64,000 nt of DNA from Acidobacteriota bacterium (GTDB taxonomy: Bacteria; Acidobacteriota; UBA890; WLXD01), in NCBI GenBank assembly GCA_963666055.2, contig CAXWPH010000010.1:1-64000 (forward strand), written 5' to 3'. Of this stretch, positions 1,546-19,912 are shown in pieces; within the stretch, counting starts at the first letter, position 1; each line of letters begins with the position of its first letter. The notes under the pieces are model-generated. The model saw only the letters and a program-made list of their open reading frames with translations, made no database searches and had not been told where the DNA came from. Made by a program: the position numbers and the translations under genes.

Positions 1546-1731
1546 TCATGAGCAGTAGTCCCTTGCCTTCGATCGAGGGTGTTCAGGATCAGAAGCGAAC
1601 TCGGCGGGCAGCACCTTGATGGCCACCTTGCGGCCCAGGCGCGTGTCCTGCGCCAGGTACACCTCGCCCATGCCGCCTTCACCGAGCTGCTCGGTGATCT
1701 CGTAGGGGCCTAGTTTGGTGCCGGGGTCCAT
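1546..1731 (-). pseudogene. Ser/Thr kinase N-terminal stub N1 (~50 kinase codons)
   Basis: [50 protein letters not shown], then unrelated sequence and a stop; near-identical to 5589 downward. Confidence 0.9.
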
Positions 1732-1798
1732 GGCGTTGCCGATACGGTGTAGGGGAGTGCCTGAAGCCTATCGCTGGGGCACGCGAGGGTCCACGGGA
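1732..1798 (-). promoter_or_regulatory. Kinase leader repeat L1 with sigma70-like promoter
   Basis: TGGACC (1793-1788), 17 bp, TAGGCT (1770-1765), 33 bp, ATG. Confidence 0.75.
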
Positions 1799-1931
1799 AG
1801 CACCTTCAGGGGCCTCGCCAGCATTAACCGGCCTGGTTTCCAGTTTGGGAAGGGAGAGTCCCATACATAGGGAGACGCATTACTCGACGCAGATCACGCT
1901 GCTTGCATGAGTCACTCACCGTCCCCCGCCG

Positions 1932-2563
1932 TTGCCCGAACCCTTGCTGCGCCACCTGGCAGAGTGCCGTGATCCCCTGGCTGACGAACACCCCTGGTAC
2001 GTATTGCTGGAGACCACCGCGACGACGCCCGACAATGATCTGACAGGGACCATGGAAGACATGCTCGGCGCTGCCGCCGAGGCCGGCGTGGTGCTCGACG
2101 CCACCATCGCCGCCAATGCCGAACAGGCCCGCGGCCTGTGGCGAATTCGCGAGGGCATCGCCGAGGTCCAGAAGCACGAGGGCGCCAGCATCAAGCACGA
2201 CGTCTCGGGTCGCCGACTTCGTGGTCGAGGCCACGGCGGCGGTCGAGGCCCACCTGCCCGGCGCCCGGCCCCTGGCCTTCGGCCACCTGGGCGACGGCAA
2301 TATCCACTTCAACACCGCCCAGCCCATCGGCGCCGACCCGGCCGAATTCCTCGGCCATTGGGGCGACTTCAACCGCCTGGTCCACGACATCGTCCAGAAC
2401 ATGGGCGGCAGCTTCAGCGCCGAACACGGCATCGGCCGCATGCGCCGCGGCGAGTCTCGAACACTATAAAAGCGAGCTTGAACTGAACCTCATGCGCCGC
2501 ATCAAGGGAGTCATTGACCCCCAGGGCCTGATGAATCCCGGCAAGGTGCTGGACGGGGCCTAG
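1932..2563 (+). pseudogene. FAD-linked oxidase (D-2-hydroxyacid dehydrogenase-like) C-terminal fragment, frameshifted
   Basis: LWRIREGI..SIKHDVS / FGHLGDGNIHFN..GGSFSAEHGIG / IKGVIDPQGLMNPGKVL split over three frames; 5' part missing. Confidence 0.85.
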
Positions 2564-2919
2564 GCCTCGTCGATGACGACGTTTTCACCACTCAGGAAGA
2601 CCGCCACCACACAGCCCTTGGGCGAGTGGGATGAATGGCTGGTGCCCGGCGCGAAGCTGACGAAATCGCCGGCCTTGAAGACCGTGCCGTCATCGTCGAC
2701 CAGTTCGCCCTCGATCATCAGGAAGTGCTCGCCGCCGGTGTGGATATGGGGTACCGAAACGCCACCGGGCTCGAACTTGACCATGAAACAGCCGATGCCG
2801 GTGGCCTCGTCGACCCGCACCGGCAGCCAGGTCATGGTCTCGGCCGATATGCCATAGCGGTCATAGGTCTCGTAGGCCGTGTTTTTCGTATCGACGATGA
2901 TGCGGTCAGTCTCGCTCAT
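2560..2919 (-). CDS. ChrR-like cupin domain protein
   Basis: FEPGGVSVPHIHTGGEHFLMIEGEL..GDFVSFAPGTSHSSHSPKGC. Confidence 0.8.
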   Translation of the reverse strand: MSETDRIIVDTKNTAYETYDRYGISAETMTWLPVRVDEATGIGCFMVKFEPGGVSVPHIHTGGEHFLMIEGELVDDDGTVFKAGDFVSFAPGTSHSSHSPKGCVVAVFLSGENVVIDEA

Positions 2920-2963
2920 GGCGCCTTGCTCCCTGTTTGCAGCTTCATTCTCGCGCATTCCCC

Positions 2964-4472
2964 TCACATGTCTCGCCAATCGCCGGACTGCTCGAAGGCG
3001 TGGGCGGCGCGGTAGATCGTCGATTCCTCGAAGTGGCGTCCGATCAGCATCATGCCGACGGGGAGACCCTCGCTCATTCCACAGGGGACGGACATGGCAG
3101 GGTGATGGGTGTTGTTGAAGGGCATCGTGTTGGTTGCCGGACCGAAGGCCAGATCGAGACTGGTCGCGGGATCGACATCTGCCGGTGGCAGCGGAGAGGC
3201 CTTCATCGGGGTCGTGGGCATCAGAAGAAGATCCACTTTCGTCAAGGCGTCGTCGTATTCGGCACGCAGCCGCCGGACCTGGTTCGTGCCCTTCGCCACG
3301 TAGTGGTACCCATGTTCCCGTCTGAGGAACTCGGTGGCCATCAGCATGATCTTGACCGTCTCGGGCAGCTCGTTCGCGCGTTGACGCCAGGCGCGCTGGG
3401 CATCGAGGAAACTCACCACAGCGGGATCGAGCCGGTTGGTCAGGCAGCCGTCACTGTGGAACATCACATCGATGGACTGTTGGATCACGGCTGTCCAGAT
3501 CGCCGGACCCAGCCGGTGCATGGGGACCGGGACCTCGCTTACGATGGCACCCATTTTGCCCAGACTCTCAGCGGCGCTTCGCACCTTGGCATCGACGTCG
3601 GGCTCCGAGGTTTCATGACCAAATCCCTCCGTGACCACACCAACCCGTAGGCCCGAAATGCCCTGCCCCGGGGATTCCGTGTAGTCGTCGGTGCGCGGGT
3701 TGTATTGACGGCTGTCCAGACCGTCGGCCCCGGCGATCACCTCCAGCAGCAGCGCGTTGTCGGTGACATTGGCTGTCATCGGCCCGACGTGATCGATGAC
3801 CGGTCCCATGCCGAGGATTCCGGTGTAGGGAACCAGCCCGTGCGTCGGCTTCATGCCGTAGATGCCGCAGAAGGAGGAAGGCATGCGGATCGAGCCACCC
3901 TGGTCGCAACCGATGGCCAGGTCTGCCTCGCCTCCGGCGACGAGGGCCGCGCTGCCCGACGAAGAACCGCCCGCCGAGTGGGCCGGGTTGTGCGGGTTCT
4001 GCACCGGGCCGGAATCGCTGGTGTGGCTCCCTCCGGAGAAGCAGAAAGCCTCGCAGACGGCCTTGCCGGTGAGCGTGCCTCCGGCATCGAGGATGCGAGT
4101 GACGACGGTGGCGTCTACAGGTGGTATGTACCCGTCGAGGATGTTTGTGCCGTCCATCAGCGGTACGCCAGCGACGAAGACGTTGTCCTTGATGGCCACG
4201 GTGCGACCCTTGAGCTTGCCGCTCTCAGAACCGGCGATATCCGTCTTGACGTACCAGGCGTTGAAGGGGTTGTCGGCCGGCGCGGGCCGTTCCCAGTTTC
4301 GTTCGGCCGCACCGGGCTGGACCTCGTCGTCCGGAAGCTCATCCAGGACGGCGTTGCCGGCGATGGAACCCTCGACCAGGTCGCGGTAGAGCGCGGCTTG
4401 TTCGTCGGAGACCGACATGCCGAAATCTCGAATGATTTCTGCGATCTGTTCGCGTGTCGGAGTCTTCAGCAT
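2964..4472 (-). CDS. Amidase (amidase signature family)
   Basis: VAIKDN, AGGSSSGSAA, DQGGSIRMPSSFCG motifs; 502 aa. Confidence 0.95.
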   Translation of the reverse strand: MLKTPTREQIAEIIRDFGMSVSDEQAALYRDLVEGSIAGNAVLDELPDDEVQPGAAERNWERPAPADNPFNAWYVKTDIAGSESGKLKGRTVAIKDNVFVAGVPLMDGTNILDGYIPPVDATVVTRILDAGGTLTGKAVCEAFCFSGGSHTSDSGPVQNPHNPAHSAGGSSSGSAALVAGGEADLAIGCDQGGSIRMPSSFCGIYGMKPTHGLVPYTGILGMGPVIDHVGPMTANVTDNALLLEVIAGADGLDSRQYNPRTDDYTESPGQGISGLRVGVVTEGFGHETSEPDVDAKVRSAAESLGKMGAIVSEVPVPMHRLGPAIWTAVIQQSIDVMFHSDGCLTNRLDPAVVSFLDAQRAWRQRANELPETVKIMLMATEFLRREHGYHYVAKGTNQVRRLRAEYDDALTKVDLLLMPTTPMKASPLPPADVDPATSLDLAFGPATNTMPFNNTHHPAMSVPCGMSEGLPVGMMLIGRHFEESTIYRAAHAFEQSGDWRDM

Positions 4473-4523
4473 GTTCCCTTCGCGGTTTGCATCACAACGC
4501 TGGATCTATCTCCCAACGGTGAC

Positions 4524-4583
4524 GAAGCAGGGTGGGTGAGCGCCTGAAGCGTATCGTTAGGGCACGTAGGGGTCCACGGGAGA
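4524..4583 (-). promoter_or_regulatory. Kinase leader repeat L2, directly upstream of the amidase
   Basis: TGGACC (4576-4571), 17 bp, TACGCT (4553-4548); no kinase coding sequence follows. Confidence 0.7.
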
Positions 4584-4589
4584 GGCCGT

Positions 4590-4670
4590 TTCGCAAGACT
4601 CGGCTGAGCGCGCTACGGGTCCGTCGGCACGAGCCGGTTCAGGTCGTCGAACCAGTTGGTGACCAGCGTC
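4590..4670 (-). repeat. Kinase C-terminal tail plus trailer repeat T1
   Basis: Encodes TLVTNWFDDLNRLVPTDP*; followed by the conserved trailer (plus strand tcgcaagactcggctgagcgcg). Confidence 0.85.
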
Positions 4671-5589
4671 ACATGGCCACTGCCGGTCTGGCTGCTCTGG
4701 CCGGTGTACACTTCGTTTGTACCGCTGAAGTTCGATTCGTATGCCAAGAGCTCGCCATCGTGCGACCATCGGCATTCTGGTAGCGCCGCCCTCGCTCTTT
4801 CGCGAGGCACTTCTTCGACATCCACTGCAACTGAGCGGGCAGGTCAGGGTTGGTGTCGCCGAGCGGCTGCGGCTCCTCGTCGGCGATCTTATGCAGGATG
4901 TCCAACATGCTCTTGCCGGCGAACGGCTGCCGACCGCTGACCATCTCGTAGAGCACGCAGCCGAAGGCGAACAGGTCGGCCCGGTGATCGATCTTGTCGG
5001 AGCCCTCAACCTGCTCCGGGGCCATGTAGCCAGCCGTGCCCATCACCTGACCGGCCACCGTGCCCATCATCGTGGGTGACTGCGTTGCACCACCTGGTGA
5101 GCCCGCCCCCGCCACCTCGGTCAGCTTCGCCAGGCCGAAGTCGAGCACCTTGGCGTGGCCTTCCTTGGTGACGAAGATGTTCTCCGGCTTCAGATCGCGG
5201 TGGATGATTCCGGCGGCATGTGCTGCTGCCAGTGCTTCGGCGATCTCGGTGGCTAAGCCGAGCGCCTTCTTGAGCGGCAGCGCACCCTTGTCCAGCGGCT
5301 CCCGCAGCGTGTCTCCCTCCAGGTACTCCTGCACCATGAAGTGGGTGTCGCCTTCCGTGCCGATGTCGTGAACGACCGCGATGTGCGGGTGGTTCAGCGC
5401 GGCGGCGGCACGAGCCTCCTGCTCGAAGCGGGCGAGCCGCTCGGGGTCAGAGGCGAACTCGGCGGGCAGCACCTTGATGGCCACCTTGCGGCCCAGGCGC
5501 GTGTCCTGCGCCAGGTACACCTCTCCCATGCCGCCCGCGCCGAGCTGCTCGGTGATTTCGTAGGGACCTAGTTTGGTGCCGGGTTCCAT
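4669..5589 (-). pseudogene. Ser/Thr (Hanks) kinase with an intact catalytic domain and the TM/beta-propeller region internally deleted
   Basis: [32 protein letters not shown] are all present. After ~4765 it jumps to a TolB/PD40-like scrap (WSHDGELLAYESNFSGTNEVY) and the tail in another frame. Confidence 0.85.
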
Positions 5590-5657
5590 AGCGCTGCCAG
5601 AGCGGGGTGGGTGAGCGCCTGAAGCCTATCGCTGGGGCACGCGAGGGTCCACGGGAG
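5590..5657 (-). promoter_or_regulatory. Kinase leader repeat L3 (native position in front of the kinase)
   Basis: TGGACC (5651-5646), 17 bp, TAGGCT (5628-5623), 33 bp, ATG 5589. Confidence 0.75.
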
Positions 5658-6076
5658 AGGCGCTGGAGGATCGGACAGAAACTGGTCCCCCAAAACGCGC
5701 CCGAGCACATCCCTCGGGGGAGTGGGACGCAGCTCGCAGGTAACGGGAGGCGACGGGCCGATGATGGAGCTGGCCTTTCTCGCGGCGGACCCGACCGACT
5801 ACTACACGCAGTCCGCGAAAGCCAACGAGCAGATGGGCGAGGCGTTGCAGAACATCCGTGCCCGGGCGGGAGCGCTCTGCCGGCGGATCGAGTCGACCAA
5901 CCACACGATCCGGCGCGACCTCGCGTATCAGCTGCCCGAATAGAGGCAGCGGGTGTGCTGTATGAAGGAAATCACCGGAGCAGTATTGGCGTACAGAAGG
6001 TGGTCGCGCCGGTGATCAAACTGCCTTGGGGTGAATGACCGGGAGGACGCCATTGCACCGTTCCATTGTACGGATC

Positions 6077-6130
6077 TGCGCCGAGCTGTTCGGTGATCTC
6101 GTAGGGGCCTAGTTTGGTGCCGGGTTCCAT
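6077..6130 (-). pseudogene. Kinase N-terminal stub (18 codons)
   Basis: [18 protein letters not shown], then unrelated sequence. Confidence 0.85.
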
Positions 6131-6197
6131 GGCGCTGCCAGACAGGGGTGGGTGAGCGCCTGAAGCCTATCGCCGGAGCGTGCGAGATCCAACGGGG
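6131..6197 (-). promoter_or_regulatory. Kinase leader repeat L4 (subtype B)
   Basis: TTGGAT (6192-6187), 17 bp, TAGGCT (6169-6164), 33 bp, ATG 6130. Confidence 0.7.
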
Positions 6198-6516
6198 CGG
6201 GTGTCGGCAGCGTTCCAGCATCCCCTTCGACGGATGAGGGTGCAGAATCGTGAAGGTCGGTTACTGACCACCCCCACGGCAGCGAGCGGACCGTTGACTG
6301 GGCCGCCACCCGTGACGCAACCGCGCCGATTTACCGAAAAGTAAACGGCGTAGAGCCCCCGCCGACGTTCCAGGGGCGTGGGGGGTCGAAACGAGCGACT
6401 CACGGCCCCTACGGGCGCTTGTAGGGACGCAGCGGCTGGCGCTACCGGGACGGAGCACTGTCTTGCAGTCGATGCTGTCTGATGGTGGCGCTGTCGAGGC
6501 TCACCCGAAGGGCGCG

Positions 6517-6577
6517 CTACCGGTCCGTCGGCACGAGCCGCTTCAGCTCGTCGAACCAGTTGGCGACCAGAACCATG
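6517..6577 (-). repeat. Kinase C-terminal tail repeat T2
   Basis: Encodes MVLVANWFDELKRLVPTDR*. Confidence 0.85.
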
Positions 6578-6633
6578 TCGGGGATCTCGTAGGGTTGCTG
6601 GGCTCAAGACGTGGCACTAACCGCAGGGTCAGG

Positions 6634-8115
6634 TCATTGCGTCTCGTTGAACAGAATCACGTACCGATCCGCATTGATACTCGCGTCCCACATCACGACA
6701 AGCAGATCGATTCTACCGTCCCCATTTGCATCGAGAGGAGTGATCTGGAATCCGATGTCGCCCGGGACCGCGAGCTGCTCGAACCGGCCCTTGCCGAGGT
6801 TCCTGAAGATCGTGCCCGACATACCGCGTTCGCCGGGCAGAACGATGTCCGGCCAGCCATCGTTGTCCAGATCGACGATGCTGATGCTTCCCCCGGTGTG
6901 GCCGTCGGCTTCGAGACTCTGGGGCAACCACTTCTTGGTCACGTCCCTGAACCGACCCTTGCCGCGGTTTTGCAGAAATTGCAGGTGCGGGTTCGGGGGA
7001 CCTCGACCACCCGACGTCTCCGTCGCCACGAGCAAGTCGGGGTCGCCATCCATGTCCAGGTCGGCGCACACGGGTGCGCTCCCGTACTCACTGTTGACGC
7101 CGTTGGGCGACAGCGGCAGCGTTATCTTCGAGTAGTTGAAGTTACCGAACCCGTCGTTCTCCAGAATCTGCGTGCGGCCCGCGAGCTTGGGGGCGTCAAA
7201 ATCGGAGGGGTGGGGGCTGCCGACGAGGTCCTGGTCACCGTCAGCGTCGACGTCACAGAACACTACCTTCGGCAATATGCAATCCTCGCTTCCGCGTGCA
7301 CACGGGCGAGAGTCCGGCGAGTTCGGAAACGGTCCGGGCAGCCTGTCGTTCTCGGCCCGAAAACCGCCGCTTCCATCGTTGATCAGTAGGCGCGGACCCA
7401 ACTCGGCGCGTTCGGGATCCGTTGATCGCCAGCTTCCTGGCCAGTTGGCATCCCAGATATCCAGGTCGCCGTCCCCGTCGACATCCGCTGCGGCAGCGTG
7501 GTGCGTGAAGGCCTGGTCATACCTGGGATAGGGCTCCCCGCGCGCGGTCCGATACCTACCGTCCGGCCTGGACAGCAGGAGCAGGTTGGCGGCCCCGGGG
7601 GCCGGGTCAGCCGGGTCCTTGCCGGTCTGCGGAAAGTAGATGTCGGGGACACCGTCGCCGTTGAAGTCGTGAATCATCGGTTGCTCATTACTCATTTGGT
7701 CAATCCTGCCCGGCTTCCCGGCCAACCACTTGCGCTTTCTCGCCCGGCTGAAGACGCCGGTCCCGTCGTTTTCCCAGACGGACAGCGCGGCCTTGTAGGC
7801 GACGCTCGGATCCGCGTAAAAGGTGACCTCATGTAGCAGAACATCGGTATCGCCGTCCTGGTCGATATCGATGACCTGCTGCCAGACACCTGGTTGATCC
7901 AAGGTGAGGCCGATACTGGTTCTGACCATTCGCCATTGCAGTGGTCCGCTGGCCACCCTGCGTGGCTGTGTCTGGTCGGTTGATGCGAGAGGGCCTGGGG
8001 CTGCCGACATCCCCGCGCTCGCGAGAACGGGAGCAAGTATCGCGACGGTGATCCAACCGAGGTGCACTCTGCGCCGTGGATTACTCGAAGCGAGGCCAGC
8101 AGGGCGGAGCTTCAT
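6634..8115 (-). CDS. Secreted FG-GAP/VCBS repeat protein
   Basis: Signal peptide; repeated DxDxDGDxD motifs ([36 protein letters not shown]). Confidence 0.85.
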
Positions 8116-8294
8116 GGTCCTCCTAGAGAACTTGATCGAGTAAGCTGCCTAGGACCGCTCGCGAAGTCGTCCGATAGTACCTTGATGGCGATATCACGAT
8201 CCAGCGTCGTGTCGCGTGCTCGGTACACCTCGCCCATCCCGCCTGCACCGAGCGGGGCGAGGATCTCGTAGTGGCCGAGGGTCTTGCCGATCAT
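8112..8294 (-). pseudogene. Ser/Thr kinase N-terminal stub (different paralog)
   Basis: [48 protein letters not shown]; its stop overlaps the ATG of the FG-GAP gene (ATGA). Confidence 0.85.
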
Positions 8295-8304: not shown

Positions 8305-10836
8305 TCACTGGATGTAGCCAAGTGCTCGAAGAGTCCGTAGCTGCTCGGAAGTCAGCGGCGACTCCTCGCCCGGCGTGAACTGCTGCGCCAGCAACTGGTG
8401 CGCCTCGAACTGCGCCTCAAGGAAAGCGGTGTAGTGCTCGACTAGGTCAGGCCGCTCCTCATGCAGGCTGCTCAAGGCGTGCGGGTCGTTCCACAGGTCG
8501 TAGAGCAGCAGGGGGACGGGCCGGCGCTCCTCTTCCGGGGTCTCCGGGTGCGGGTTTATCTCGAGCGATGCCCCCCAACGCCCATCGACCACCTCGATGC
8601 GACCGCGGAACTCGCCCGTGTCGCCATCCACCCAGAACTCGTCGAGGATGACGGGGCGCGGCTCCCACCCTGCCTCCCCCAGCAGCAACGGCGCCAGGGA
8701 CTGTCCCTGCATCACTTCCGGCATCGACAGATCCGCCAGGTCTAGGATGGTCGGCAGCAGGTCGATCATGGAGACGGGCTGGCTGAACCGATGGCCTGGA
8801 GCAATGCGCCCCGGCCAGACCACGATCAGCGGGATGCGGGTCGTGCCGGACCTGACCATGGGAGCCCCAGGAAGCCGATGGAACAAAGGCCCGCGGGGCG
8901 GTAGGGAATCACGCATGAGGAGGCCGTAGTCCGCCGAGCCCGCCCCGACGCCGTGATCCGCCGCGACGATCAGGAGGGTGTGCTCCCACTCGCCGGCTGC
9001 CTTGAGCCGGGCCATGAGCCGGCCAAGCTGGTAGTCCTGGTGCGCCATCGTTTCGTCGTGCAGGTCCCGTTGGGCGGTGACGAACGGCACCCGGCTGATG
9101 CCGGCCTGCTCAAACCCCTTTCCCCCCCGCCAGAAGACCCCTGATGCCTGGAGGAGGCGGTGCCATTCCTCGACGATCTGGCGGCGGTTAGGGCTGATGA
9201 AGAGGCCCGCGAAAGGAGGGAGCGGCGTGTGCGACCTATGCACGTCGGTCGTCTGAAAATGCACCCAGTACGGCTCGCTGGGGTACGCCTCCCGCCATGC
9301 CCAGAAGTTCTCATGGAGCTCCACGGAGGACTTGGACTCGGGCGTGACCCCGGCTTCTCGGAACACATCGACGCCACGTTCGAGGCTGCTCAACCTCCCA
9401 GCGTTCCCGTTGGATGTGAACACGGCAGTCTGGTAGCCGGCCCGGTGCATGTGCTGAGCCATGGTCGGCGCATTGTCCGGGATCACATTGAACCCGTTCT
9501 TGAAACCGCCCAGCACGCTGTGTTGCAACGAGGTCATGAAGGAGGCCGTGGAGGGTCGGGTCCAGCTGGAATTGCTGTACGCACGCTCGAAGATCGCACC
9601 CTCGGCGGCCAGCCGCTCGAGGTTCGGCGTCGTGCGACGATTGTAGCCGTAGACGCTCATGTAATCGGCACCACCGCCGTCGATGATGTAGAAGATGATG
9701 TTCGGCTTGTCGGTGGTGCGCGCGCCGCTGATTGTCGGCGCAGCCCACAAAGCGACCCTCCCTTCGGCTTCGGACTCGGCCTCCAAGCCGAGCGTCACCG
9801 TCTGGCCCGCAAAGTCGGCCAGATCCACCGAACGCTGGCCCCAGCCCTTCTTGACCGCATAGCGCTCCTCGAACAGCGCGGTCGGTTCACCACCCCCGGC
9901 ACCATCAGGGATCGCCGTGACCCGGAAGGTCACGGGCACGTCCTCACGCAAGACACCCATGGCGAAGTCGAGCCGGCCCGCCTCCGGGATCTTCACCCGA
10001 TACTCCACGCGCCCCGGCGTGTGCGTATACAGAGCCTGCCGATAGATGCGGTTGCGGATTTCAGTGCGCGAGGCCGCGCCCGCGTTGGCGTAGTTAGCCA
10101 CCTTCGGGATCAGCGTGATGGAAAGAATGTCGATGCTGGCCACATCAGTGGCCGCGAACAACAGGCCGATCTCCCGAATCGATCCCTCCGGTGGCGGATC
10201 CCCCCAAAAGTAATCCAGCCGCAGCTGGTAGGTCTGCACCGTACCGTCGCTTACAACAGGCGCCTCATCGCCTCCGTGCTCAAATGGATTGGGGCCGCTT
10301 GCATCCGTACCGGTCCCCTCTCGCCTGTTGAAGCCGATGAAGAAGTCGCTGACATCATCGGAGGTGCGAGCACGCACCACGAGGTGCGCCAGATCCTCGT
10401 AGTTCCAATCGGGCACCTCGAGAACCAGGCCGCCCCTTGGGTTGCCGTTCGGATTCCTCGTACCGTCCGTTAGCGTGACGCGCAGCGCGTCGTCGAGCTG
10501 CGTGACCTCGACCGGATCGTTCGTGGGGTTCCACGGGACTACCGGCTTCCAGTCCTCCTGGGGCTCGTCGAAGTGCCATTCCATGGCGTCCGGAGCGTCT
10601 GCGGGGACCTCGGAGCCCACGATGGTGGCCACGTCGAAGTGTTCCTCAAGGTGGAGGGGAACCTCGGCGGTCAGCGGTGACGGGCCGGGGTCAAGCCCTG
10701 TGCAACCCGTCGTTAGGAGGATCGCGAGGAGCAGCGCTGCAAGCGAGTGGCACCAGTCGAGACGAACCTCTCCCATGCCGCCAGCACCGAGCTGCTCGGT
10801 GATTTCGTAGGGGCCTAGTTTGGTGCCGGGTTCCAT
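8305..10836 (-). CDS. Sulfatase-like lipoprotein whose first 24 residues are kinase-derived
   Basis: [32 protein letters not shown] and LRALGYIQ motifs; N-terminus [24 protein letters not shown] followed by a hydrophobic stretch and lipobox LTTGC. Confidence 0.85.
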
Positions 10837-10903
10837 GGCGCTTCCACAGGGATGTGGGGGAACGCCGGAAGCCTATCGCCGGGGCGGGCGAGGGTCCACG
10901 GAG
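10837..10903 (-). promoter_or_regulatory. Kinase leader repeat L5
   Basis: TGGACC (10898-10893), 17 bp, TAGGCT (10875-10870), 33 bp, ATG 10836. Confidence 0.75.
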
Positions 10904-11145: not shown

Positions 11146-13113
11146 ATGCAACATAACCTTGTTGCTCTCCGTATCGTGATCGTCGCCAGCCTCACGCTTG
11201 CTACCTACGCCCCGGCAGAACAGACGGGCTCTGCAGCCTCCGGTAACTGGTCTCGGTACGCCGCCGACCAGGCGGGCACCAAGTACACGCCACTCGACGG
11301 CATCAACGCCAAGAACTTCGACCATCTCGAGATCGCCTGGCGCTGGGACACGGTCGATCAGCCTATCCTCGACGCCAACCCCGATATCTGGACCAACCGC
11401 AACGAAGCCACGCCGCTGGCCATCGACGGTGTCCTTTACACCACGACCTCGCTGAACCAAGCCGCGGCCATCGACGGCGCCACCGGCAAAACCCTGTGGA
11501 CGTTCGATCCCGGCACCTGGCGTGGCGGCTCGCCTGCCAGCCTCGGGTTCATTCACCGCGGCCTGGCGCTCTGGGAGCAAGACAACGGCGACAAGTGGCT
11601 CGTTTACGGCACGAGCGATGCGTACATGATCGCTCTCGACGCCGGCACCGGATCTCCGGTGCCGACGTTCGGCGACAACGGCCGCATCGACCTGACGCAG
11701 GGTTTGCGCCGACCGATCAAGCGCGAGTTCTACGGCGTTAACTCCCCGCCGATGATCTGCGGCGGCAACATCGTTATCGGCTCCGCCGTCTGGGACCTCA
11801 TCGCCGAGGACCTGGCGCCCCCGGGCGACGTGCGTGGCATCAACCCCGCCACCGGAGCCACCGCTTGGACCTTCGAGTCGATCCCGCAGGGACCGCTGGC
11901 CGAGGAAACCTGGGGCGCCGATTCGTGGCAGACGTACGGCAACACCAACGTGTGGTCGTTCATGAGCTGCGACGAGGAGCTCGGCCTCGTGTACCTGCCG
12001 TTCGGCACGCCGACGAGCGACTACTACGGCGGCGGCCGGCCCGGCGACAACCTCTACGCGGAGTCGATTGTCGCGGTGCGCGCCGATACCGGCGAGAAGG
12101 CGTGGCACTTCCAGGGCGTGCATCACGGCATCTGGGATTACGATTTCCCCGCCGCGCCGATCCTGGTCGACATCACGGTCGAGGGTCGCGAGATCAAGGC
12201 GCTCGTGCAGATCTCCAAGCAGGCCTTCGCCTACGTGCTTGACCGCGAAACCGGCGAGCCGGTGTGGCCGATCGAGGAGCGACCTGTGCCGCAGGAGCCG
12301 ACCATGCCCGGCGAGTTCCTGTCCCCGACGCAGCCGTTTCCCACCAAGCCGGCCGCCTTCGACCGGCAAGGCATCCTGCGCGACGAGCTCATCGACTTCA
12401 CCCCCGAGCTGCGTGCCGAGGCCGAGCAAATCCTGCAGCAGTGGGACCACGGCCCGCTCTTCACGCCGCTGACACAACGCGGCACACTGATGCTCCCCGG
12501 CTTCATCGGCGGCGCCAGTTGGGCGGGTGCCAGCGTGGATCCGAATTCCGGGATCTTGTATGTGCCCTCGGTAACCCTGCCTACCCTATTGGCGCTGCAG
12601 GAGCCGGCCGGCGAGTCGGCCTACCGTTACCAAATCTCCTTCGACGCGCTACCCGAGGGCCCACAGGGGCTACCGTTTTTCAAGCCGCCCTACGGCCGCG
12701 TTACCGCCATCGACCTGAACACTGGCGAGCACCTGTGGGTGACACCCATGGGGGCCGGCCCCAAGGACCATCCGGCGCTCGCCGGTCTCGAACTCGCCGA
12801 CCTCGGCTCGCCTTACCGCACGTTCCTGGTGCGCACACCGTCGTTGCTGCTGGCCGCCCAGGAGGGCCCGTTCACGGCTCCGTTCCTCTCGGACCGCGGC
12901 AACGCGATCCTGTTGGCCGGGCAGACCGAGGCACCGTCGATCCGGGCGCTGGATCCGGCGACCGGCGAGATCATCGGCGAGGTCCCGCTACCGAACAATG
13001 CAAGCGGAGGCTTTGTGACCTACATCGCCGACGGCGTGCAATACATTGCCGTGCCGATCGGCGGGGCATCGCAGAAGGCAGCGTTGGTGGGGCTGCGGGT
13101 GGAAAGCGAGTAG
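11146..13113 (+). CDS. PQQ-dependent dehydrogenase (quinoprotein glucose/quinate dehydrogenase-like)
   Basis: Signal peptide; NEATPLAIDGVLY, WHFQGVHHGIWDYD, PGFIGGASW, KPPYGRVTAIDLNTGE. Confidence 0.9.
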   Translation: MQHNLVALRIVIVASLTLATYAPAEQTGSAASGNWSRYAADQAGTKYTPLDGINAKNFDHLEIAWRWDTVDQPILDANPDIWTNRNEATPLAIDGVLYTTTSLNQAAAIDGATGKTLWTFDPGTWRGGSPASLGFIHRGLALWEQDNGDKWLVYGTSDAYMIALDAGTGSPVPTFGDNGRIDLTQGLRRPIKREFYGVNSPPMICGGNIVIGSAVWDLIAEDLAPPGDVRGINPATGATAWTFESIPQGPLAEETWGADSWQTYGNTNVWSFMSCDEELGLVYLPFGTPTSDYYGGGRPGDNLYAESIVAVRADTGEKAWHFQGVHHGIWDYDFPAAPILVDITVEGREIKALVQISKQAFAYVLDRETGEPVWPIEERPVPQEPTMPGEFLSPTQPFPTKPAAFDRQGILRDELIDFTPELRAEAEQILQQWDHGPLFTPLTQRGTLMLPGFIGGASWAGASVDPNSGILYVPSVTLPTLLALQEPAGESAYRYQISFDALPEGPQGLPFFKPPYGRVTAIDLNTGEHLWVTPMGAGPKDHPALAGLELADLGSPYRTFLVRTPSLLLAAQEGPFTAPFLSDRGNAILLAGQTEAPSIRALDPATGEIIGEVPLPNNASGGFVTYIADGVQYIAVPIGGASQKAALVGLRVESE

Positions 13114-13154
13114 GGGAAGCCCGGCCCCCGACTAGGCCAATACGAGACGCTTCC

Positions 13155-13210
13155 GAAGCAGGGTGAGCGCCCTGAAGCCTATCGCCGGGGCACGCGAGGG
13201 TCCACGGGAG
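13155..13210 (-). promoter_or_regulatory. Kinase leader repeat L6 (no ATG; faces the 3' end of the PQQ gene)
   Basis: TGGACC (13204-13199), 17 bp, TAGGCT (13181-13176). Confidence 0.7.
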
Positions 13211-13385
13211 ACGCCGGAATGCCGCCGCTCAGCGCCTTTCTAACGTCCGCCGGCACCCAGCCCACCGAAGTGCCTGTCAGGTTGTCGGCGGCCCGTAGCG
13301 GGGCCTTCTCGGGGCTCCTAAGCAGACATATGACTGGTGTCTGCCCCGGCATTGCGGACGAGCGGAATCGAGGGTCGCTGGGTGG

Positions 13386-13535
13386 CTCGCGAGACTCCGC
13401 TGGCGCCGCTACGGGTCCGTCGGCACGGGTCGCTTCAGTTCGTCGAACCAGTTGAGGACGACGTGCAGCTCGGTTTCCCGTCCCGGATTGGTCTCAGCGG
13501 CCCTGATCATGACGAACCGTTCGCCGTCAGGAGCG
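13386..13535 (-). repeat. Kinase C-terminal tail plus trailer repeat T3
   Basis: Encodes APDGERFVMIRAAETNPGRETELHVVLNWFDELKRPVPTDP*; trailer ctcgcgagactccgctggcgccg. Confidence 0.85.
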
Positions 13536-13608
13536 CTTTCCGGAAGGCTGGCAGCAGCCGTTGCCGTTCATCCGGGTCGTCCCGCAGCCGAAGTAGGCTG
13601 ACGCTCCA

Positions 13609-14658
13609 TCAGGGACCGGGTCGGGTCGGACCTGCGGTCGCGCGACGAGCCGACTTGTCGTTGTCGCATGCGTCGCCGATGCCGTCGCCGTCCGAGTCGC
13701 CTTGCTGTGGGTTAACCTGTTGCCGGCAATTGTCCTCGCTATCCGGAATGCCGTCGAGATCGCGGTCGGTTCTCTGCAGCTTCAGGTAACAGGAGGATGC
13801 CTCGTCCTTCTGGCAGGGCTGCTCGGGAATCGTCGAGTCGATGACGGTGTTGACCCGGCGCTGACCGTCCGTCTTTTTGTCGACCTGGCCCGTAGCGACG
13901 CGATGGAAGTGCGCCCGCCAGATGACCTCTGTCGAACCGACGCGGTAGCGCACGGCGACTCCCCCGGAGATCGGATCCTTGTCCCAGTAGGTCAAGCGCT
14001 CGACGCTGAAGCCCATCTGCTCTAGCACGGTGTTGGCATCCTTCACCGGCTTGCCCTTCTGTGTGAGCTTGGCCTTCTTGGTCTCCGGGTCCGAGTGCTG
14101 GCGCTGCGTGCTGCGCGGAGCATCACCGTTGTGGTCGATCTCGTGGGCGAGCGTGGCGATCAGCTTGACGCTGGCCAGCAATTGGCGCGCGGCAGCGACT
14201 CCGCCGATCAGCACCGGCATGTTTTCGCCATCGACCTCGACGCCGGTGTTCAGCGCGTCGATGTCGCCGAGATCGACGCCCAGCAGGGCCTGGTTCTTCT
14301 GTGTCGGTGCGGCCCTGCCGGAGAACACATCGGGATTGTCCCGGGACACCTGGACTTTCAAGCGACCCCGGTGCGTTTCGCACGCCTTGGCCACTTTGGC
14401 TCGCATGTCCTCGGATTTCTGGTATGCATTTTTCAGCGTATCCGCGACGCGCTTCTCGTCCGCGGCTGTGGCCTTGCCTGTGCGCTCGACGGTGACCTTG
14501 CAGTCTCCGAGCTCGAACACCGTTTTCCGGTCGCTTCGCCGAGCGCCAGTCGATGCAGCTGATTGCGCCTCCGCCGGCCACGGACTGTCGGTCAGCTGCA
14601 CGAGCATCACCGCCATCACTGTCAGTATCGACAGGCGGATCGTCGTCGATGCCCTCAT
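13609..14658 (-). CDS. Secreted protein with an HExxH motif and a thrombospondin type-3 repeat
   Basis: Signal peptide from ATG 14658 (ATGA overlap with the upstream gene); TLAHEIDH; DRDLDGIPDSEDNC..DSDGDGIGDACD. Confidence 0.7.
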   Translation of the reverse strand: MRASTTIRLSILTVMAVMLVQLTDSPWPAEAQSAASTGARRSDRKTVFELGDCKVTVERTGKATAADEKRVADTLKNAYQKSEDMRAKVAKACETHRGRLKVQVSRDNPDVFSGRAAPTQKNQALLGVDLGDIDALNTGVEVDGENMPVLIGGVAAARQLLASVKLIATLAHEIDHNGDAPRSTQRQHSDPETKKAKLTQKGKPVKDANTVLEQMGFSVERLTYWDKDPISGGVAVRYRVGSTEVIWRAHFHRVATGQVDKKTDGQRRVNTVIDSTIPEQPCQKDEASSCYLKLQRTDRDLDGIPDSEDNCRQQVNPQQGDSDGDGIGDACDNDKSARRATAGPTRPGP

Positions 14659-15248
14659 GGTTGCACGATCTCGAAGATGGCCCAGTGACCGTGATCGTTG
14701 CCCCCGGGTACGCGCACCAACTGATCGAATCCCTCGAGCGCGAAGCCGAGCCAGTGAAAGTCCACGGACGGCAGCATCTCGACCCGGGTGAGGATCTCGA
14801 GCAAGACCGTGCCCCGAGCCGTTGGCCCCAGCGTCACCGGGCCCAGGGGGCTGACGAAGTCTCCGCTCAGCGGAGCACAATGGGCCGCAGCCTGGGCATC
14901 GACACCAAAAGACCTCCCGAACGCCTGGTTGTCGGCCAGTCCGGTGTTCGGGTCCTTGTCGGCATCGATGAAGATGCCGTAGGAGAGCGCCTCAGCGGAG
15001 TTGGTGCATTCCGGCATCTCGGCAAGCTCGATGCGGATCGCCACCTGACGGCCCTTGACCCTGCGGAACTTGTCGATGTTGCCGAGCTCCACGACCTCTG
15101 CCGACAGCACGTCCAGATGGCCCGGCAGCTCCGACGCTCCCGGCGCGGCGACGAGACCGGCCAACGAGACCAGCATCAGAGCCAACACTATCGGCAGCGC
15201 TCGAACCAGCAGTAGTCTCACTTGGGAGCTCCCCCGCGTCGACGTCAT
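14655..15248 (-). CDS. Secreted hypothetical protein
   Basis: 197 aa with a hydrophobic N-terminal signal; YGIFIDADKDPNTG; coupled to the downstream gene. Confidence 0.6.
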   Translation of the reverse strand: MTSTRGSSQVRLLLVRALPIVLALMLVSLAGLVAAPGASELPGHLDVLSAEVVELGNIDKFRRVKGRQVAIRIELAEMPECTNSAEALSYGIFIDADKDPNTGLADNQAFGRSFGVDAQAAAHCAPLSGDFVSPLGPVTLGPTARGTVLLEILTRVEMLPSVDFHWLGFALEGFDQLVRVPGGNDHGHWAIFEIVQP

Positions 15249-15281
15249 GGGTCAGCCTGACGATTCAAGCACGTAGTCCTT

Positions 15282-15400
15282 CATTCGCCCAGCGGTGATG
15301 TGATCGGACGACCTCGGTGCCGGGTTGTATCCCTACCTGTCCGTCGGCGGCACGAGCCGCTTCAGCTCGTCGAACCAGTTGGTGACGAACGCCACCGTTA
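15282..15400 (-). repeat. Kinase tail T4 immediately followed by a degenerate kinase start
   Basis: VAFVTNWFDELKRLVPPTDR* (stop 15333-15335), then ATA CAA CCC GGC ACC GAG GTC...ATCACC..CTGGGCGAA resembling MEPGTK..IT..LGE. Confidence 0.7.
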
Positions 15401-15481
15401 CCGTCGACGGCATCCCCGTGGGTGACGGACGGCACGCTGTTGGCTCGGTAGCGGGTCGGCAGCGGCGCACAGATCGCGACG

Positions 15482-17833
15482 TTATCGAGGCAGGATCCAC
15501 TCCAGGCCCGCGCGGAGTGACCTCGGCGCACCGGGACCAAGGAACCGCGGATCGTCGAACCTTCCAGCGAACACCTCGCCCGGCTCACCGAGAACACCGA
15601 ACGTCTCGTATTCCGCATCCAGCAGGTTGGTCACCGTGGTGTAGAGCGTCACGGTCTCACCGACGCGGTAGGACCCCATCGCGTTGAGCAGCGTGAACCC
15701 GGGTACCGGTGCGAGCAGGTTCGCCTCGTCGCCCCTGAAATACCGCGACGAGGTGGACATCAGGTCCAGCCCGAGCTCCACGGCGTCGCCGACGTTGGCG
15801 GTGAATCCGGCCTTCAGATTGTGCCGCGGTATTCCCGGTATCGCGTCGCCGGGCTCAACGCGGATCTCACCATCGACCGCCAGCGGGTGGTTCGGGCTGG
15901 GGACCGTCAGGACGGTGTCGAAGGTGGGGCTCAGGTGCATGTAATCCACGTGCCAGCCGAAACGACCGGCGATGCGACCGGAGGCGCCGAGCTCGACCCC
16001 GCGGCGCCGCGTCCGGCCGACGTTCTCGAAGAACCCTTGCCCGCGCAGCGGACCGCTGCTGACGAACAGGATGTCGTCGTGGTTGACGCTCTGAAAGACA
16101 ACCGCCCGTAGATCGAGCGACCGCAGCCGCGCTCTGAGCCCCCCCTCCCAGGTTCGCGTCACAACCTGCTCGAGTGCAGGGTCGGCGACGAAACCGTTTG
16201 GAAGGCGGCACGGATCCTCGGGATCGGCGCAGGTCAGCTCGACCGGGGTCGGAGCCCGGGATGACTCCGCGTAGCCTGCGAACACCGATACCCGGCTCGA
16301 AGCCTGGAGCGCCAGGCCGCCGGAGAGGTTGAGCCGACCGAACGAGTGATCCCCGTCCAGGTCATCGCCAAGCTCGTCAAACAGCTCGATCCGGGTGTCG
16401 TTGTAGCGGCCCGACACGGTGAGAGAAACACGAGGGCTCACCGTCAGCATGTCGGTGACGAACAGCCCGAGGTTGCGGTTCCGTGCCTGTAAGTGCACGA
16501 GCGAGTCGAGCCAGACGATGCCGTGTCCCTCCGCGCCGCGATCCGGGGTCAGGGCAGCCAACTCGGATTGCGAGCGGAACCGCGTTCTCCCGGCGTCGTA
16601 GCTGACGCCGACGATCAGCTGATTGTCCCGCTGCAGTATGCCCTCCCGAATCGTCGTCTCGAGAGCCCCGCCATAGCCCCGTTGCCGCGTCTCGCTGGTG
16701 TTGTTGAGCGCGTCGACCGCGTCGGCTCCGAGCGAAACGGGATTCCCGGTCAGGTCCAAGACCGGCGTTCCGCCGTCTTCACCCACGCACAGGTGGTCCA
16801 GGGGCGCGGCCGCCAGGCAAGCCTGGAAGTCGGCCGTATCGGCGTTGAGGGTCTCGACGTTGTTGCGTCGGAAGTACGCGCGTCCCTCCAGCCAGTTCCC
16901 ATCCGCGATCTCACGGCGCGCCCCGACGGAGGCCAGGATCAGCGCGTTGTCGGTGATGTCGGGATGCGTGAACACGGTAGCGCGGTCGATGGTCAGAAGC
17001 TCAATCGGCGCAGCGCCGTTGCCCTGAAGCCGATTGTCTGCGGCAGTCACGCTCGCTTCGACCGCCGTCGCCTCGCCCTGCCAGCTCAACTTTCCGAACA
17101 GCCGCCGAACCAGCGAAGGCGAGAAGTCCCGCCAACCATTCTCCGACATCAGGTCTCCGTTGAGGTAGTAGCCGAGCTTTCCCCGGGCTCCACCGCTCTG
17201 CAGCGAGACTCCGCGCTGGCCAAACGACCCCGCCTCGGCGCGGAGCCCGTGGCTCCGGTCGCTGAAGCCGGACTTGGTGCGTATGGAAACGGAGCCGCCC
17301 AGGGTGTTGAGACCGAACAACGGGTTGGAGCCAGAAAACAGGGCGAGGGCGGAGATCGCCGATAGCGGAACCAGGTCCCAGTGGACCGTGTCGCCGAACA
17401 GCTCGTTGAGCCGCACGCCGTCCTGGTAGACGGACAGTCCCTGAGGCGAACCCAGCAGGGGCGACGCGGCGTACCCGCGGAAGTGGACGTCGGGCTGGAA
17501 GGGATTGCCCTGCGCTTCGACAACGTGCACACCGCCGAGCCCACGACTCATGAGGGCGCTGAGGTTCCGTGCACGAGACCGAGCGATCGCCTCGGCGCCC
17601 ATGGTCTGAACGCTCGCCGCAACCTTGGCGAGGTCGACGCCGGCGCCGATCGGCGTCACGCCGATGACGGTAATCTCGTCGACGACCGTCGGCCGGTCGG
17701 GTTCTTGTTGCGTCTCCCCTTGTTGCCCCTCGGCGATGGACGCCATGCCCCCGAGCAGCGCGACGCCCAGGCCGAGAATCGTCGCGGCCAAGCGTCGAGA
17801 TGAGATGTTCGAGAGGCCGTGATCCCCGCGCAT
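15482..17833 (-). CDS. TonB-dependent receptor
   Basis: Signal peptide, TonB box DEITV, plug GNPFQPDVHFRG..YQDGVRLNE, barrel ending NLLDAEYETFG..GAPRSLRAGLEW; start codon uncertain. Confidence 0.9.
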   Translation of the reverse strand: MRGDHGLSNISSRRLAATILGLGVALLGGMASIAEGQQGETQQEPDRPTVVDEITVIGVTPIGAGVDLAKVAASVQTMGAEAIARSRARNLSALMSRGLGGVHVVEAQGNPFQPDVHFRGYAASPLLGSPQGLSVYQDGVRLNELFGDTVHWDLVPLSAISALALFSGSNPLFGLNTLGGSVSIRTKSGFSDRSHGLRAEAGSFGQRGVSLQSGGARGKLGYYLNGDLMSENGWRDFSPSLVRRLFGKLSWQGEATAVEASVTAADNRLQGNGAAPIELLTIDRATVFTHPDITDNALILASVGARREIADGNWLEGRAYFRRNNVETLNADTADFQACLAAAPLDHLCVGEDGGTPVLDLTGNPVSLGADAVDALNNTSETRQRGYGGALETTIREGILQRDNQLIVGVSYDAGRTRFRSQSELAALTPDRGAEGHGIVWLDSLVHLQARNRNLGLFVTDMLTVSPRVSLTVSGRYNDTRIELFDELGDDLDGDHSFGRLNLSGGLALQASSRVSVFAGYAESSRAPTPVELTCADPEDPCRLPNGFVADPALEQVVTRTWEGGLRARLRSLDLRAVVFQSVNHDDILFVSSGPLRGQGFFENVGRTRRRGVELGASGRIAGRFGWHVDYMHLSPTFDTVLTVPSPNHPLAVDGEIRVEPGDAIPGIPRHNLKAGFTANVGDAVELGLDLMSTSSRYFRGDEANLLAPVPGFTLLNAMGSYRVGETVTLYTTVTNLLDAEYETFGVLGEPGEVFAGRFDDPRFLGPGAPRSLRAGLEWILPR

Positions 17834-18028
17834 CCGTTGCTCGCTCCTCGCCGCGCGAAGTACCGCGCGCTCTGGCGACGGCGAGCAGGTCACCAAAGTC
17901 GCTAGCACCCACGCGGCCGTCCCGGCAAGATTACGCTGTCCGTTGTCACCGTGGGGAGGGAGATGGTTCCGAAAATGTCACCGAGTGCTGGCATACCCTG
18001 CGGTGAGGCCGCTCAGGTGAAGCTTCAG

Positions 18029-18110
18029 CTCGCAAGCTGCGGCTGACGCCGCTACGGGTCCGTCGACACGAGCCGCTCCAACTCGTCGAACCAGTGGGTG
18101 GCCAGCGTCG
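18029..18110 (-). repeat. Kinase C-terminal tail plus trailer repeat T5
   Basis: Encodes PTLATHWFDELERLVSTDP*; trailer ctcgcaagctgcggctgacgccg. Confidence 0.8.
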
Positions 18111-18161
18111 GGGTATCCGGAGGTCGGCATCCGCGCTCAAGGACTAGCGGACCGCGTGCTG

Positions 18162-18350
18162 CTACTGCTGCTGAGGCTCGAGGTCCTTGGTTGCGAGCAG
18201 GACCGCCGCGCCGACCATCATGGCGCCGCAGACCCGGTTAACCCAATTAGAAGAGAGGCTGCGGATGCGATGGGCAGCGTAGCCTGACAACCAGCCCCAT
18301 CCCAGGAGGATTACCCCGTCGACGATCAGGTAGGTGCCGCCCAGAATGCA
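18162..18350 (-). pseudogene. LysE-family exporter C-terminal fragment
   Basis: Manual translation ILGGTYLIVDGVILLGWGWLSG...NWVNRVCGAMMVGAAVLLATKD. Confidence 0.55.
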
Positions 18351-18532
18351 CGACGTGCAGACAAGTGCATGTTGAGCCCGTGAAGCCCAAACGGAGGCGA
18401 TTCGGCCGACTAGAGCTGCTGACGGCCAATCAGCACGACGCCCTGGAAGTGACTGGTATCAAAGGCGATTCTCGGGCCGGGGTCGAAACGGCTCGGTGCA
18501 CGGGGTATTGACGGCCTTCTGTCGAGTCGCCC

Positions 18533-19813
18533 CTACGGGTTGAAGATTGGCGAGGAGGATAGCTGCCGCGCGACCGACTGCAGATCCGGGTTCACCAGAT
18601 CCTCCCCGAAAGACCCGAACCAGGCGATAACCAGGTCACGTCGCGGCGATACGTACAGGAACTGCCCGCCGTAGCCACCCTTGCCGAAGTCGCCGTCCGC
18701 GAACACGACGTCGCATTGCCAGGCGCTGTGGGTCGGAAGCTCGCCGGCGGTTCCGTAGCCCGGTCGGAAGTTGCTTGATGGCGTCAATTCCGGACGGGCG
18801 TCATCGAGAAGCTTCTCGTGGAAAGCGGTTTGTTCCAGGAGGAACAGACCGAGCCGCCCAAGGTCGCGCAGCGTCGTGAAGACCCCTGAGTGGGCAGCCG
18901 CAGCCTGTCCGACAGCATAGTCACCGGAGACGATCAGACCATCGTGCTCGGCGCCGACCTGGACCCAGACCAGCTCCGACAGCAGTTCAGGGTAGGTCTT
19001 GCCGGTGACGACCTCCGCTAGGTACATCAGCACGTTGGTATTGGCAGATGTGTAGTTGTACCTCGTCCCCTGCTCGAAGCCGTGCGGTGCGGTCGCGATG
19101 TGCGATCGAAACGAAACGGGTGAGAGTTTCGGCTGAAACCCGACGCTGCGTTCCATCACCATGAAGCAGGAATCGATATCCCGGTAGGCGTCGTTACTCT
19201 CGTAGCAGCCGGTGCCGGAGGCCATGTCGAGGATGTTGCGAATCGTGATGCCTTCCCACGAGGTACCTTTCAACGCCGGGATGTAGTGATCGATGGTCTG
19301 GGCGACATCGACAAGCCCCCGGTCCTGAAGCTTCGAGATCAACAGACCGGTGATCATCTTGCTGATGCTGAAATAGATGTGCCTATCGTCGGCGCGCATG
19401 TTCACGTAGCGTTCGTAGACGATCTCGCCTCGGTGGAGCACGATGAAGCCATCCACGCGTGGATCGTTGGCGACGTAGTCGTCCAGCGTCACCCGGCCAC
19501 GGTCTCTCGTGTTAACCAGGTATTCAGCGACGTCCCCGCGTGGCGCCTCGGGAAGCTCCAGGATCGGACCACCACGGCGGAGTTCGACGAGTGGAAAGAG
19601 CTTGTCCATGTTGAGGTTGGCATAGCGCGTCAGCTCACCGCCGAACCAACCGGTGACGTAGTCCCAGCGTTCGTGCAGGACCCTGGCCTCGGCGGCCGAA
19701 AAGAGGCCACCGTGGCGCTCCGCGTCCTGCGGTTCGTTCGCCATTGAGACTGGCGTCGTCAGCGACACCAGCATCAGAAGCATGCTGGCAAGAACGATCA
19801 AGCGAGACTTCAT
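18533..19813 (-). CDS. Secreted serine hydrolase, beta-lactamase class C/NylB-like
   Basis: Signal peptide MKSRLIVL..; FSISK (SxxK), LDMASG, YNYTSANT, TLRDLGRLG, GYGGQFLYVSP. Confidence 0.9.
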   Translation of the reverse strand: MKSRLIVLASMLLMLVSLTTPVSMANEPQDAERHGGLFSAAEARVLHERWDYVTGWFGGELTRYANLNMDKLFPLVELRRGGPILELPEAPRGDVAEYLVNTRDRGRVTLDDYVANDPRVDGFIVLHRGEIVYERYVNMRADDRHIYFSISKMITGLLISKLQDRGLVDVAQTIDHYIPALKGTSWEGITIRNILDMASGTGCYESNDAYRDIDSCFMVMERSVGFQPKLSPVSFRSHIATAPHGFEQGTRYNYTSANTNVLMYLAEVVTGKTYPELLSELVWVQVGAEHDGLIVSGDYAVGQAAAAHSGVFTTLRDLGRLGLFLLEQTAFHEKLLDDARPELTPSSNFRPGYGTAGELPTHSAWQCDVVFADGDFGKGGYGGQFLYVSPRRDLVIAWFGSFGEDLVNPDLQSVARQLSSSPIFNP

Positions 19814-19845
19814 TGTTCTGTCTCCAAATCCAGAGGAGATCACTT

Positions 19846-19912
19846 GATGGCGCTACCAGAGGGGGGGTGAGCGCCTGAAGCCTATCGCCAGAGCGTGCGA
19901 GATCCAACGGAG
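19846..19912 (-). promoter_or_regulatory. Kinase leader repeat L7 (subtype B) upstream of the serine hydrolase
   Basis: TTGGAT (19907-19902), 17 bp, TAGGCT (19884-19879); the kinase ATG context is altered to gcgccATC. Confidence 0.7.

Follow-up and report, generated by a model that had tools for sequence, protein, structure and literature searches.

How the two ends of one kinase gene family come to stand, over and over, around genes that have nothing to do with kinases is the question raised by the opening 64 kb of contig C10 in an Acidobacteriota genome (G000; 5.73 Mb in 15 contigs), a stretch referred to below as the window. Over about 18 kb of it, kinase 5′ leaders (L), kinase N-terminal stubs (N), and kinase 3′ tails (T) alternate with unrelated "cargo" genes. 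The initial annotation regarded this array as a new, integron-like cassette system in which the conserved kinase termini act as homology anchors or recombination sites. Sequence comparisons indicate that the array is real and recurrent in relatives, and that it is an unusual form of linker-mediated gene shuffling. It is probably a hollowed run of tandem kinase genes, in which homologous recombination at the shared ends would swap the interiors while tRNA-targeting integrases acting in trans would move the units flanked by attachment (att) sites.

The repeats themselves are well defined. By nhmmer and direct reading, the array holds 7 L and 5 T, every copy on the minus strand and at the positions first proposed, and the N stubs at 1731, 6130, 8294, and 10836 were borne out, whereas the one at 15330 is doubtful, with only about 12 matching bases. 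Genome-wide, the L and T profiles match 87 and 98 sites, respectively, 6 of which sit in an inverted duplicate on contig C8, and the absence of any L or T match from the reversed genome excludes chance. Nineteen clusters contain 148 of the 185 matches, and a tRNA or tRNA fragment lies within 5 kb of 10 of them. All 4 congeners searched have L-N matches and also carry T, and T was found in 18 of the 31 genomes searched, none of them outside the order. Short-read unitigs assembled from runs of two studies bridge most of the cargo-anchor junctions (e.g., 2824-4625, 13315-15377, 15359-18422, and 18393-19894), nearly all with 0 differences, but no single unitig covers the entire array, and the unitig breaks fall within repeats.

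The parent genes encode a kinase followed by a PD40 propeller, and copies in relatives scan in the same way. About 19 full-length frames of 858-940 aa and about 10 frameshifted or near-full copies exist in the genome, and the earlier statement that no full-length kinase survives therefore holds within these 18 kb but not beyond them. A frequent layout is L-k1-k2-T, and 20 of the 98 T matches are k1 ends that overlap a k2 start. Because kinase matches in PADLOC and NCBIfam were confined to the kinase domain or remained below cut-off, no defense role is assigned. What is kept of the family is selectively its two ends: the 188 non-full fragments comprise 75 from the 5′ end, 67 from the 3′ end, and 46 internal ones, and coverage per 100 nt declines from 81 through 61, 31, 28, 25, and 18 to 19 over the kinase domain (leave-one-out detection at least 0.93), is 4-14 mid-gene, and rises to 68 at the 3′ end, or 81, 9-28, and 86 after correction. 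The ends are homogenized at synonymous sites as well. Among pairs of paralogs less than 55% identical, taken from 12 intact paralogs, codon identity reaches 0.71 over codons 1-25 and 0.74 in T, whereas the propeller has 0.43 (expected 0.44-0.50) and the PEQ motif 0.41; this peak at the ends indicates that recent exchange was strongest there. T carries a near-invariant 24-nt core. The breakpoints are scattered, over 33-2390 nt and 25-1163 nt, which argues that the kinase ends are not recombination sites; the idea of homology anchors fared better, since the ends are kept and homogenized and junctions are shared, although it had not foreseen the att-flanked units described below. In the second taxonomic family (loci L068-L072 and L062-L067), the letters of T are unchanged from one genus to another, even at a non-preferred TTG codon.

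The array reads from high to low coordinates as follows; cargo names were confirmed by Pfam, except that the LysE scrap has only a weak match.

20313..20401, both strands: stacked tRNA fragments, att remnants, Met(cat) 31-75 (minus) and Leu(cag) 40-85 (plus)
20102..20152, minus: tRNA-Thr(cgt) 21-73 fragment, likely the att core opening the array, with arm-like repeats (ATCTAAC twice upstream, TGGGGGTCGG twice downstream)
19912..20101, minus: att-to-L spacer, 87% identical to C12:33981-34173 and 84% to C15:481476-481666
19850..19911, minus: L, promoter-like leader TTGGAT-17-TAGGCT
18533..19813, minus: cargo, serine hydrolase of the beta-lactamase fold (PF00144)
18180..18350, minus: LysE/RhtB-like scrap (weak NCBIfam match, E 0.00095)
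18041..18104, minus: T, kinase 3′ tail
15482..17908, minus: cargo, TonB-dependent receptor (Pfam)
15328..15388, minus: T, slightly degenerate, with the doubtful 12-nt N remnant after it
13609..15248, minus: cargo, a pair of predicted secreted proteins, with a TSP-3 repeat in one of them
13148..13534, minus: T-spacer-L linker, consisting of a kinase C-terminal remnant (13412-13534), T (13399-13461), a 189-bp spacer, and L (13148-13210)
11146..13113, plus: cargo, pyrroloquinoline quinone (PQQ) dehydrogenase, inverted to L (Pfam)
10838..10902, minus: L
8305..10836, minus: cargo, lipoprotein sulfatase preceded by 26 kinase codons in an in-frame fusion (N stub at 10836)
8137..8294, minus: k2-type N stub of about 53 aa, behind the sulfatase stop codon and GTTGAAGAGG
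6634..8115, minus: cargo, FG-GAP repeat protein (Pfam)
6078..6569, minus: T (6511-6569), spacer, L (6132-6196), and an N stub of 18 aa at 6130
5591..5657, minus: L
4616..5589, minus: kinase with intact catalytic domain (4771-5589), the transmembrane segment and propeller deleted as far as a frameshifted C-terminal remnant
4522..4665, minus: T (4602-4665) joined to L (4522-4582), the same T-L junction as at C6:297279-297408
2560..4472, minus: cargo, amidase and cupin (Pfam)
1932..2486, plus: C-terminal fragment of an FAD-oxidase
1582..1927, minus: degenerate Thr att spacer, L (1733-1798), and an N stub of 50 aa at 1731
1..1293, minus: cargo, M24 hydrolase, cut by the contig end (Pfam)
21688..22569, minus: truncated kinase of a more distant type, beyond the array span

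In favor of shuffling, a given cargo junction recurs at separate loci and on kinase ends that differ. The sulfatase shell of the window exists in several copies in G000 and its congener G002, with two types of left junction, each on different kinase 5′ ends, while on the right the shell runs into a k2 start, a k1-type start, or T. Both junctions, left and right, are also present in a genome of another family (G020), between Glu and Leu att fragments, where the promoter of the shell is nearly identical to one preceding an intact kinase of that family. A kinase stub start, defined by a pattern of our own, was seen in 5 of the best 120 sulfatase homologues, 3 of the 5 being from the genome of the window, and such a fusion is therefore not the normal state of the family. 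Similarly, a 1.0-kb T′-N2-cargo-T block is 95% identical at sites on contigs C6 and C14 and at locus L053 of G002, with different flanks, and the boundaries of the G002 copy lie in T′ and T; an L-cargo segment of 3.2 kb is identical at two loci, and both copies end inside L. As a separate observation, the sulfatase homologues P0016, P0029, P0050, P0094, and P0111 start with stubs of other multi-copy signaling families, e.g., of the MSDPVSRLNAALEGRYAIERELGEGG or EIHRRSLWQVL type, which we take to be Gemmatimonadota-type; end capture may extend beyond this lineage.

Relatives also differ in content at the same locus. At one tRNA-Met, G000 and the congeners G003 and G004 start with L and then diverge, and G002 is without L. 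The M24 gene stands immediately after L-N11 in G002 (two copies), G003, and G004, and a cupin of G003 is joined to L-N57 via a 10-bp microhomology. The tRNA-Thr island of G002, 98-99% identical over shared stretches, contains no L or T within the 100 kb fetched, and the TonB receptor of the window has a 95% identical copy in G002 without L or T, inside a conserved gene neighborhood where G000 has a different gene. Cargo polymorphism at the same tRNA, which the initial annotation had led one to expect, is thus evident, and the arrangement that would have spoken for simple decay of interspersed paralogs, the same cargo order with intact kinases in between, was not seen in relatives. The conserved unit is a T-spacer-L linker between two kinases as often as an L...T shell. 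The linker at 13148..13534 is 89% identical over 331 bp to that preceding a near-full kinase (C15:790756-791084), and the spacer-L-N portion of 6078..6569 is 89% identical to the region preceding an intact kinase (C8:28439-28720). Such matches of the window linkers to native kinase-kinase spacers elsewhere suggest that the array is a tandem kinase run that has been hollowed.

The neighborhood of a tRNA was already pointed out in the initial annotation. The array opens with a tRNA-Thr att fragment and arm-like repeats, 191 bp before the first L; a matching att-spacer-L stands behind an intact tRNA-Thr at C12:34175 (88%), the block 19847-20355 is 89% identical to C15:481222-481734, and the L at 1733 retains a decayed copy of the Thr att spacer. 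Only one att end is visible in the window array, because the contig stops. In G000, att or tRNA sequences adjoin 9 of the 87 L upstream and none downstream, and 8 of the 98 T downstream (7 credible, one a chance overlap) and 1 upstream; in 89 loci of relatives, chosen mostly around L/T matches, the figures are 10 of 82 upstream versus 2 downstream for L and 14 of 93 downstream versus 1 upstream for T. The order is nearly always att-L...T-att, with 11 tRNA types involved, and loci L028, L078, L015/L016, L045, and L065 are flanked by a tRNA and partial tRNA att copies. In G004, tRNA-Arg 5′ att copies accompanied by TGTGCCC arm repeats form an integrase-free tandem array; an intact kinase occupies one of its units, and L-cargo or N-cargo-T occupies others. 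In G000, the TGTGCCC arm also adjoins a truncated integrase; an intact integrase and integrase-free T ends have the Met arm GGGTGCCAC in common. Tyrosine recombinase matches number 29 in the genome, and for 15 of the 25 checked a tRNA or fragment is no more than 1.5 kb away; no such match lies in window positions 1-20 kb, and no Met- or Arg-type integrase match was found inside units L015, L016, L021, L028, and L078. The earlier description of the array as free of attC sites and of a local recombinase is therefore right as to attC but incomplete, given that a minority of units are att-L...T-att at tRNAs and that recombinases are encoded elsewhere in the genome. Such tRNA-targeting tyrosine integrases probably deliver the att-L...T-att units into the islands. 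In G020, a small integrase-bearing element with replication-like and DNA-binding genes and a tRNA-Glu att end (L065:285-4400) stands directly before the sulfatase shell.

The most plausible reading of L is a putative promoter that resembles the sigma-70 type. Its conservation sets in sharply with a -35-like hexamer, is highest at CGATAGGCT, and is retained in copies truncated just behind that point; the -10 region is 90-100% conserved. The pattern -35/17/-10, which was built from these same copies, fits 80 of the 87 L, and 7 tRNA genes are preceded by a similar geometry. Cargo behind L is co-oriented with it in 41 of 54 cases; the corresponding figures are 35 of 63 for genes upstream of L and 28 of 51 for those behind T (p 0.03 for each comparison), a difference that gives the promoter modest support. 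Three results weigh against this reading: an E. coli-based promoter scan, which uses the consensus of E. coli, left L below its threshold and uncalled; the co-orientation does not exceed the 69% that is the background across the genome (p 0.30); and the PQQ gene of the window is inverted to L.

If these elements are put together, the array might have formed as follows. Multi-copy kinases with ends homogenized at the nucleotide level populate the tRNA islands. A kinase-cargo junction would be born once, by deletion or by one-sided illegitimate recombination at a random point, and would be kept because L supplies a promoter and a start codon. Crossovers in L/N and T would then spread the finished shell, as the copies described above suggest, into other kinase copies and also across genera and families, where the shell would adopt the recipient's own promoter; genes for ComEC and DprA are present in the genome. 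Finally, cognate integrases supplied in trans might integrate at tRNAs the units that lie between att arms. Several observations do not sit easily with this scheme. Of the 84 ends of island duplications, 12 coincide with anchors in both copies and 9 in a single copy, whereas 63 miss the anchors altogether, so much of the island turnover does not use them; together with kinases, anchors occupy roughly 20% of island DNA. The HRD-DFG stretch is also partly homogenized (codon identity 0.59), so conversion is not restricted to the ends. About 90% of the L and T copies have no adjoining att, and a homologue of the Arg integrase was not found in G003 or G004 at E 1e-20. No credible excision or circle joint was detected at the tRNA-Arg unit or in the window among assembled contigs, which drop rare forms and so give this negative no evidential weight. 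Lastly, an amidohydrolase cargo has the order T-cargo-L in G000 but N-cargo-T in G004, a difference for which simple deletion suffices.

A rival explanation is plain decay, to which we assign an appreciable though minor chance: kinases would arrive repeatedly as cargo of tRNA-integrating elements, other genes would land between them, and deletions would run until the next useful sequence, so that promoters are kept and shells are ordinary block duplications or transfers. The scattered breakpoints agree with such a course, as do the amidohydrolase, the duplication ends off the anchors, the match of the window linkers to native spacers, and the erosion of cargo itself to stubs (sulfatase tails). 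Microhomology at junctions amounts to 6-10 bp in a few cases and to 0-2 bp, or an unresolved length, in many; since the survey was contaminated by the ends of CTAG-targeting miniature inverted-repeat transposable elements (MITEs), only single examples are used here. (MITE copies of this kind occur at C11:160107-160400 and at many CTAG sites, some in tandem and some inserted at kinase stop codons.) What decay leaves unexplained is that T, for which no function is known once it is cut off, is retained several times as often as the middle after correction, that both ends are homogenized at synonymous sites, and that one junction is found on different kinase ends and behind the promoter of another family. 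Deletions next to insertion sequence (IS) elements or MITEs that had entered kinases might have created individual junctions, in view of an IS-like end at window 6570-6635 and of inserts resembling IS at C13:22832 and L037. That they gave rise to most junctions is unlikely and was rejected: ends of high-copy repeats, tested for families with several copies, adjoin 4 of 142 junctions compared with 47 of 714 control gene ends.

The near-invariant core of T and the sharp onset of L homology might instead suggest a dedicated, undescribed recombinase that treats L and T as sites for integron-like cassette exchange, and the window does contain the C-terminal fragment of an IntI (50422-50740, minus; 149 bits on TIGR02249, with one internal stop). 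We consider such an enzyme improbable, because the edge of L coincides with the -35 position and the breakpoints are spread over the ranges given above. An attC-like pattern, not one from a dedicated tool, occurs close to 2 of the 87 L and to 1 of the 98 T, against 0.4% at random, none of 6 tested repeats folded beyond its shuffles, and no intact IntI exceeded the TIGR02249 cut-off in the genome search. Both an integron, or a cluster of attC sites without an integron integrase (CALIN), and site-specific exchange at L/T were rejected on these grounds. In addition, Rfam gave no match other than tRNA, and no terminator stem-loop was found in the repeat. The front part of the IntI fragment is replaced by two small genes (about 51400-50815), perhaps a PemK/MazF-type toxin-antitoxin pair. 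Misassembly or chimeric contigs driven by repeats could be brought forward on account of the large C8 inverted duplication (C8:38000-44800 versus 51500-66961), possibly an assembly fold-back, of the many frameshifted kinases, and of the fact that no record spans the whole stretch. With unitigs from two studies bridging the junctions, and the same architecture with some identical junctions in G002, G003, G004, and G020, error of this sort is extremely improbable.

Returning to recombination at shared kinase ends as the preferred explanation, the claim that no described system resembles the array was too strong, since close analogues are in print. No description of kinase-end anchors was found in the main texts of the open-access literature. 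By analogy, the array is most like the shuffling by promoter early stem-loop (PeSL) cassettes, set inside tycheposon-like islands, with features of the linker of the lpl cluster and of arrays built by homology-facilitated illegitimate recombination (HFIR). In the variable regions of the T4-like phages RB49 and phi1, the PeSL, a repeated sigma-70-like promoter, serves as a linker for homologous recombination through which unrelated genes are inserted, deleted, or replaced, with no dedicated recombinase identified in that account (PMC2839356). The likeness would lie in the use of a promoter-like repeat as a linker for shuffling unrelated genes; here, in contrast, the anchors derive from a protein-coding family (promoter, first and last codons) and have no terminator hairpin, they reside in a bacterial chromosome, and some units have tRNA att arms, whereas mini-circles are a feature of PeSL (PMC2839356). 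Tycheposons and cryptic tRNA-integrated elements of Prochlorococcus are tRNA-adjacent islands with partial tRNA att scars and successive integration at one site, and they share with the present case the att scars, nutrient-related cargo, and decayed integrases (bioRxiv 10.1101/2020.12.28.424599). Tycheposons encode their own integrase, as described there, unlike the att-L...T-att units inspected here, in which kinase ends are combined with 11 tRNA types.

In the Staphylococcus aureus lpl cluster, recombination among paralogs keeps a unit of 3′ end, intergenic region, and 5′ end that is comparable with the T-spacer-L-N linker, but the lpl segment is central and only halves of paralogs are exchanged, whereas here the ends are conserved, the middle is saturated, and the cargo is unrelated (PMC2568036). 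HFIR at type VI secretion system (T6SS)/Rhs loci joins DNA illegitimately opposite a conserved anchor and so builds arrays of remnants, a course comparable with that proposed here; its cargo is toxin-immunity modules and one end is anchored, while here both ends would serve, around metabolic or surface genes (PMC5361080). Integrons and CALIN resemble the array in having single-gene cargo behind a promoter and an integrase that may act in trans, and differ from it by their attC, an intact IntI, and a fixed crossover (PMC11389934).

A wider view, which we put forward tentatively and which seems possible rather than likely, is that the kinase ends serve as a universal adaptor for gene capture. 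A gene that lands between them would gain a promoter and a start codon, could be substituted for the middle of any kinase paralog, whatever the recipient within the order, and could board the cassettes of many tRNA integrases, so that the islands would have an integron-like platform without its own recombinase whose anchors are under selection. Should this be true, it would offer a testable answer to how islands fill with foreign genes and express them; that most island DNA lies outside recognizable mobile elements is a gap raised in the tycheposon paper (bioRxiv 10.1101/2020.12.28.424599). It would also extend PeSL-type shuffling to cellular genomes, a point left open in PMC2839356, and would give the large kinase-PD40 expansions of these bacteria a genomic role. 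In genomes of this kind, many of the short genes annotated as "kinase", and of the kinase-led fusions, would then be anchors and not kinases.

Some neighboring features of the window deserve mention. A gene of the acidobacterial VWA family TIGR03436 lies beside the array (22912-25311); at least 4 copies exist in the genome, one of them fused behind L-N35 at a tRNA-Met (C14:333910). For an IS-like element at 35411-36489, genome G007 has at least 40 near-identical matches (92%), and G002 has several (99%). The segment at 20561-21081, which is 520 bp long and carries tRNA-Lys, tRNA-Glu, and a Thr att, is duplicated at C7:18709-19229 with 99.6-99.8% identity, the window tRNA-Lys being called 4 nt shorter than the C7 copy, and tRNA genes may themselves travel as cargo.

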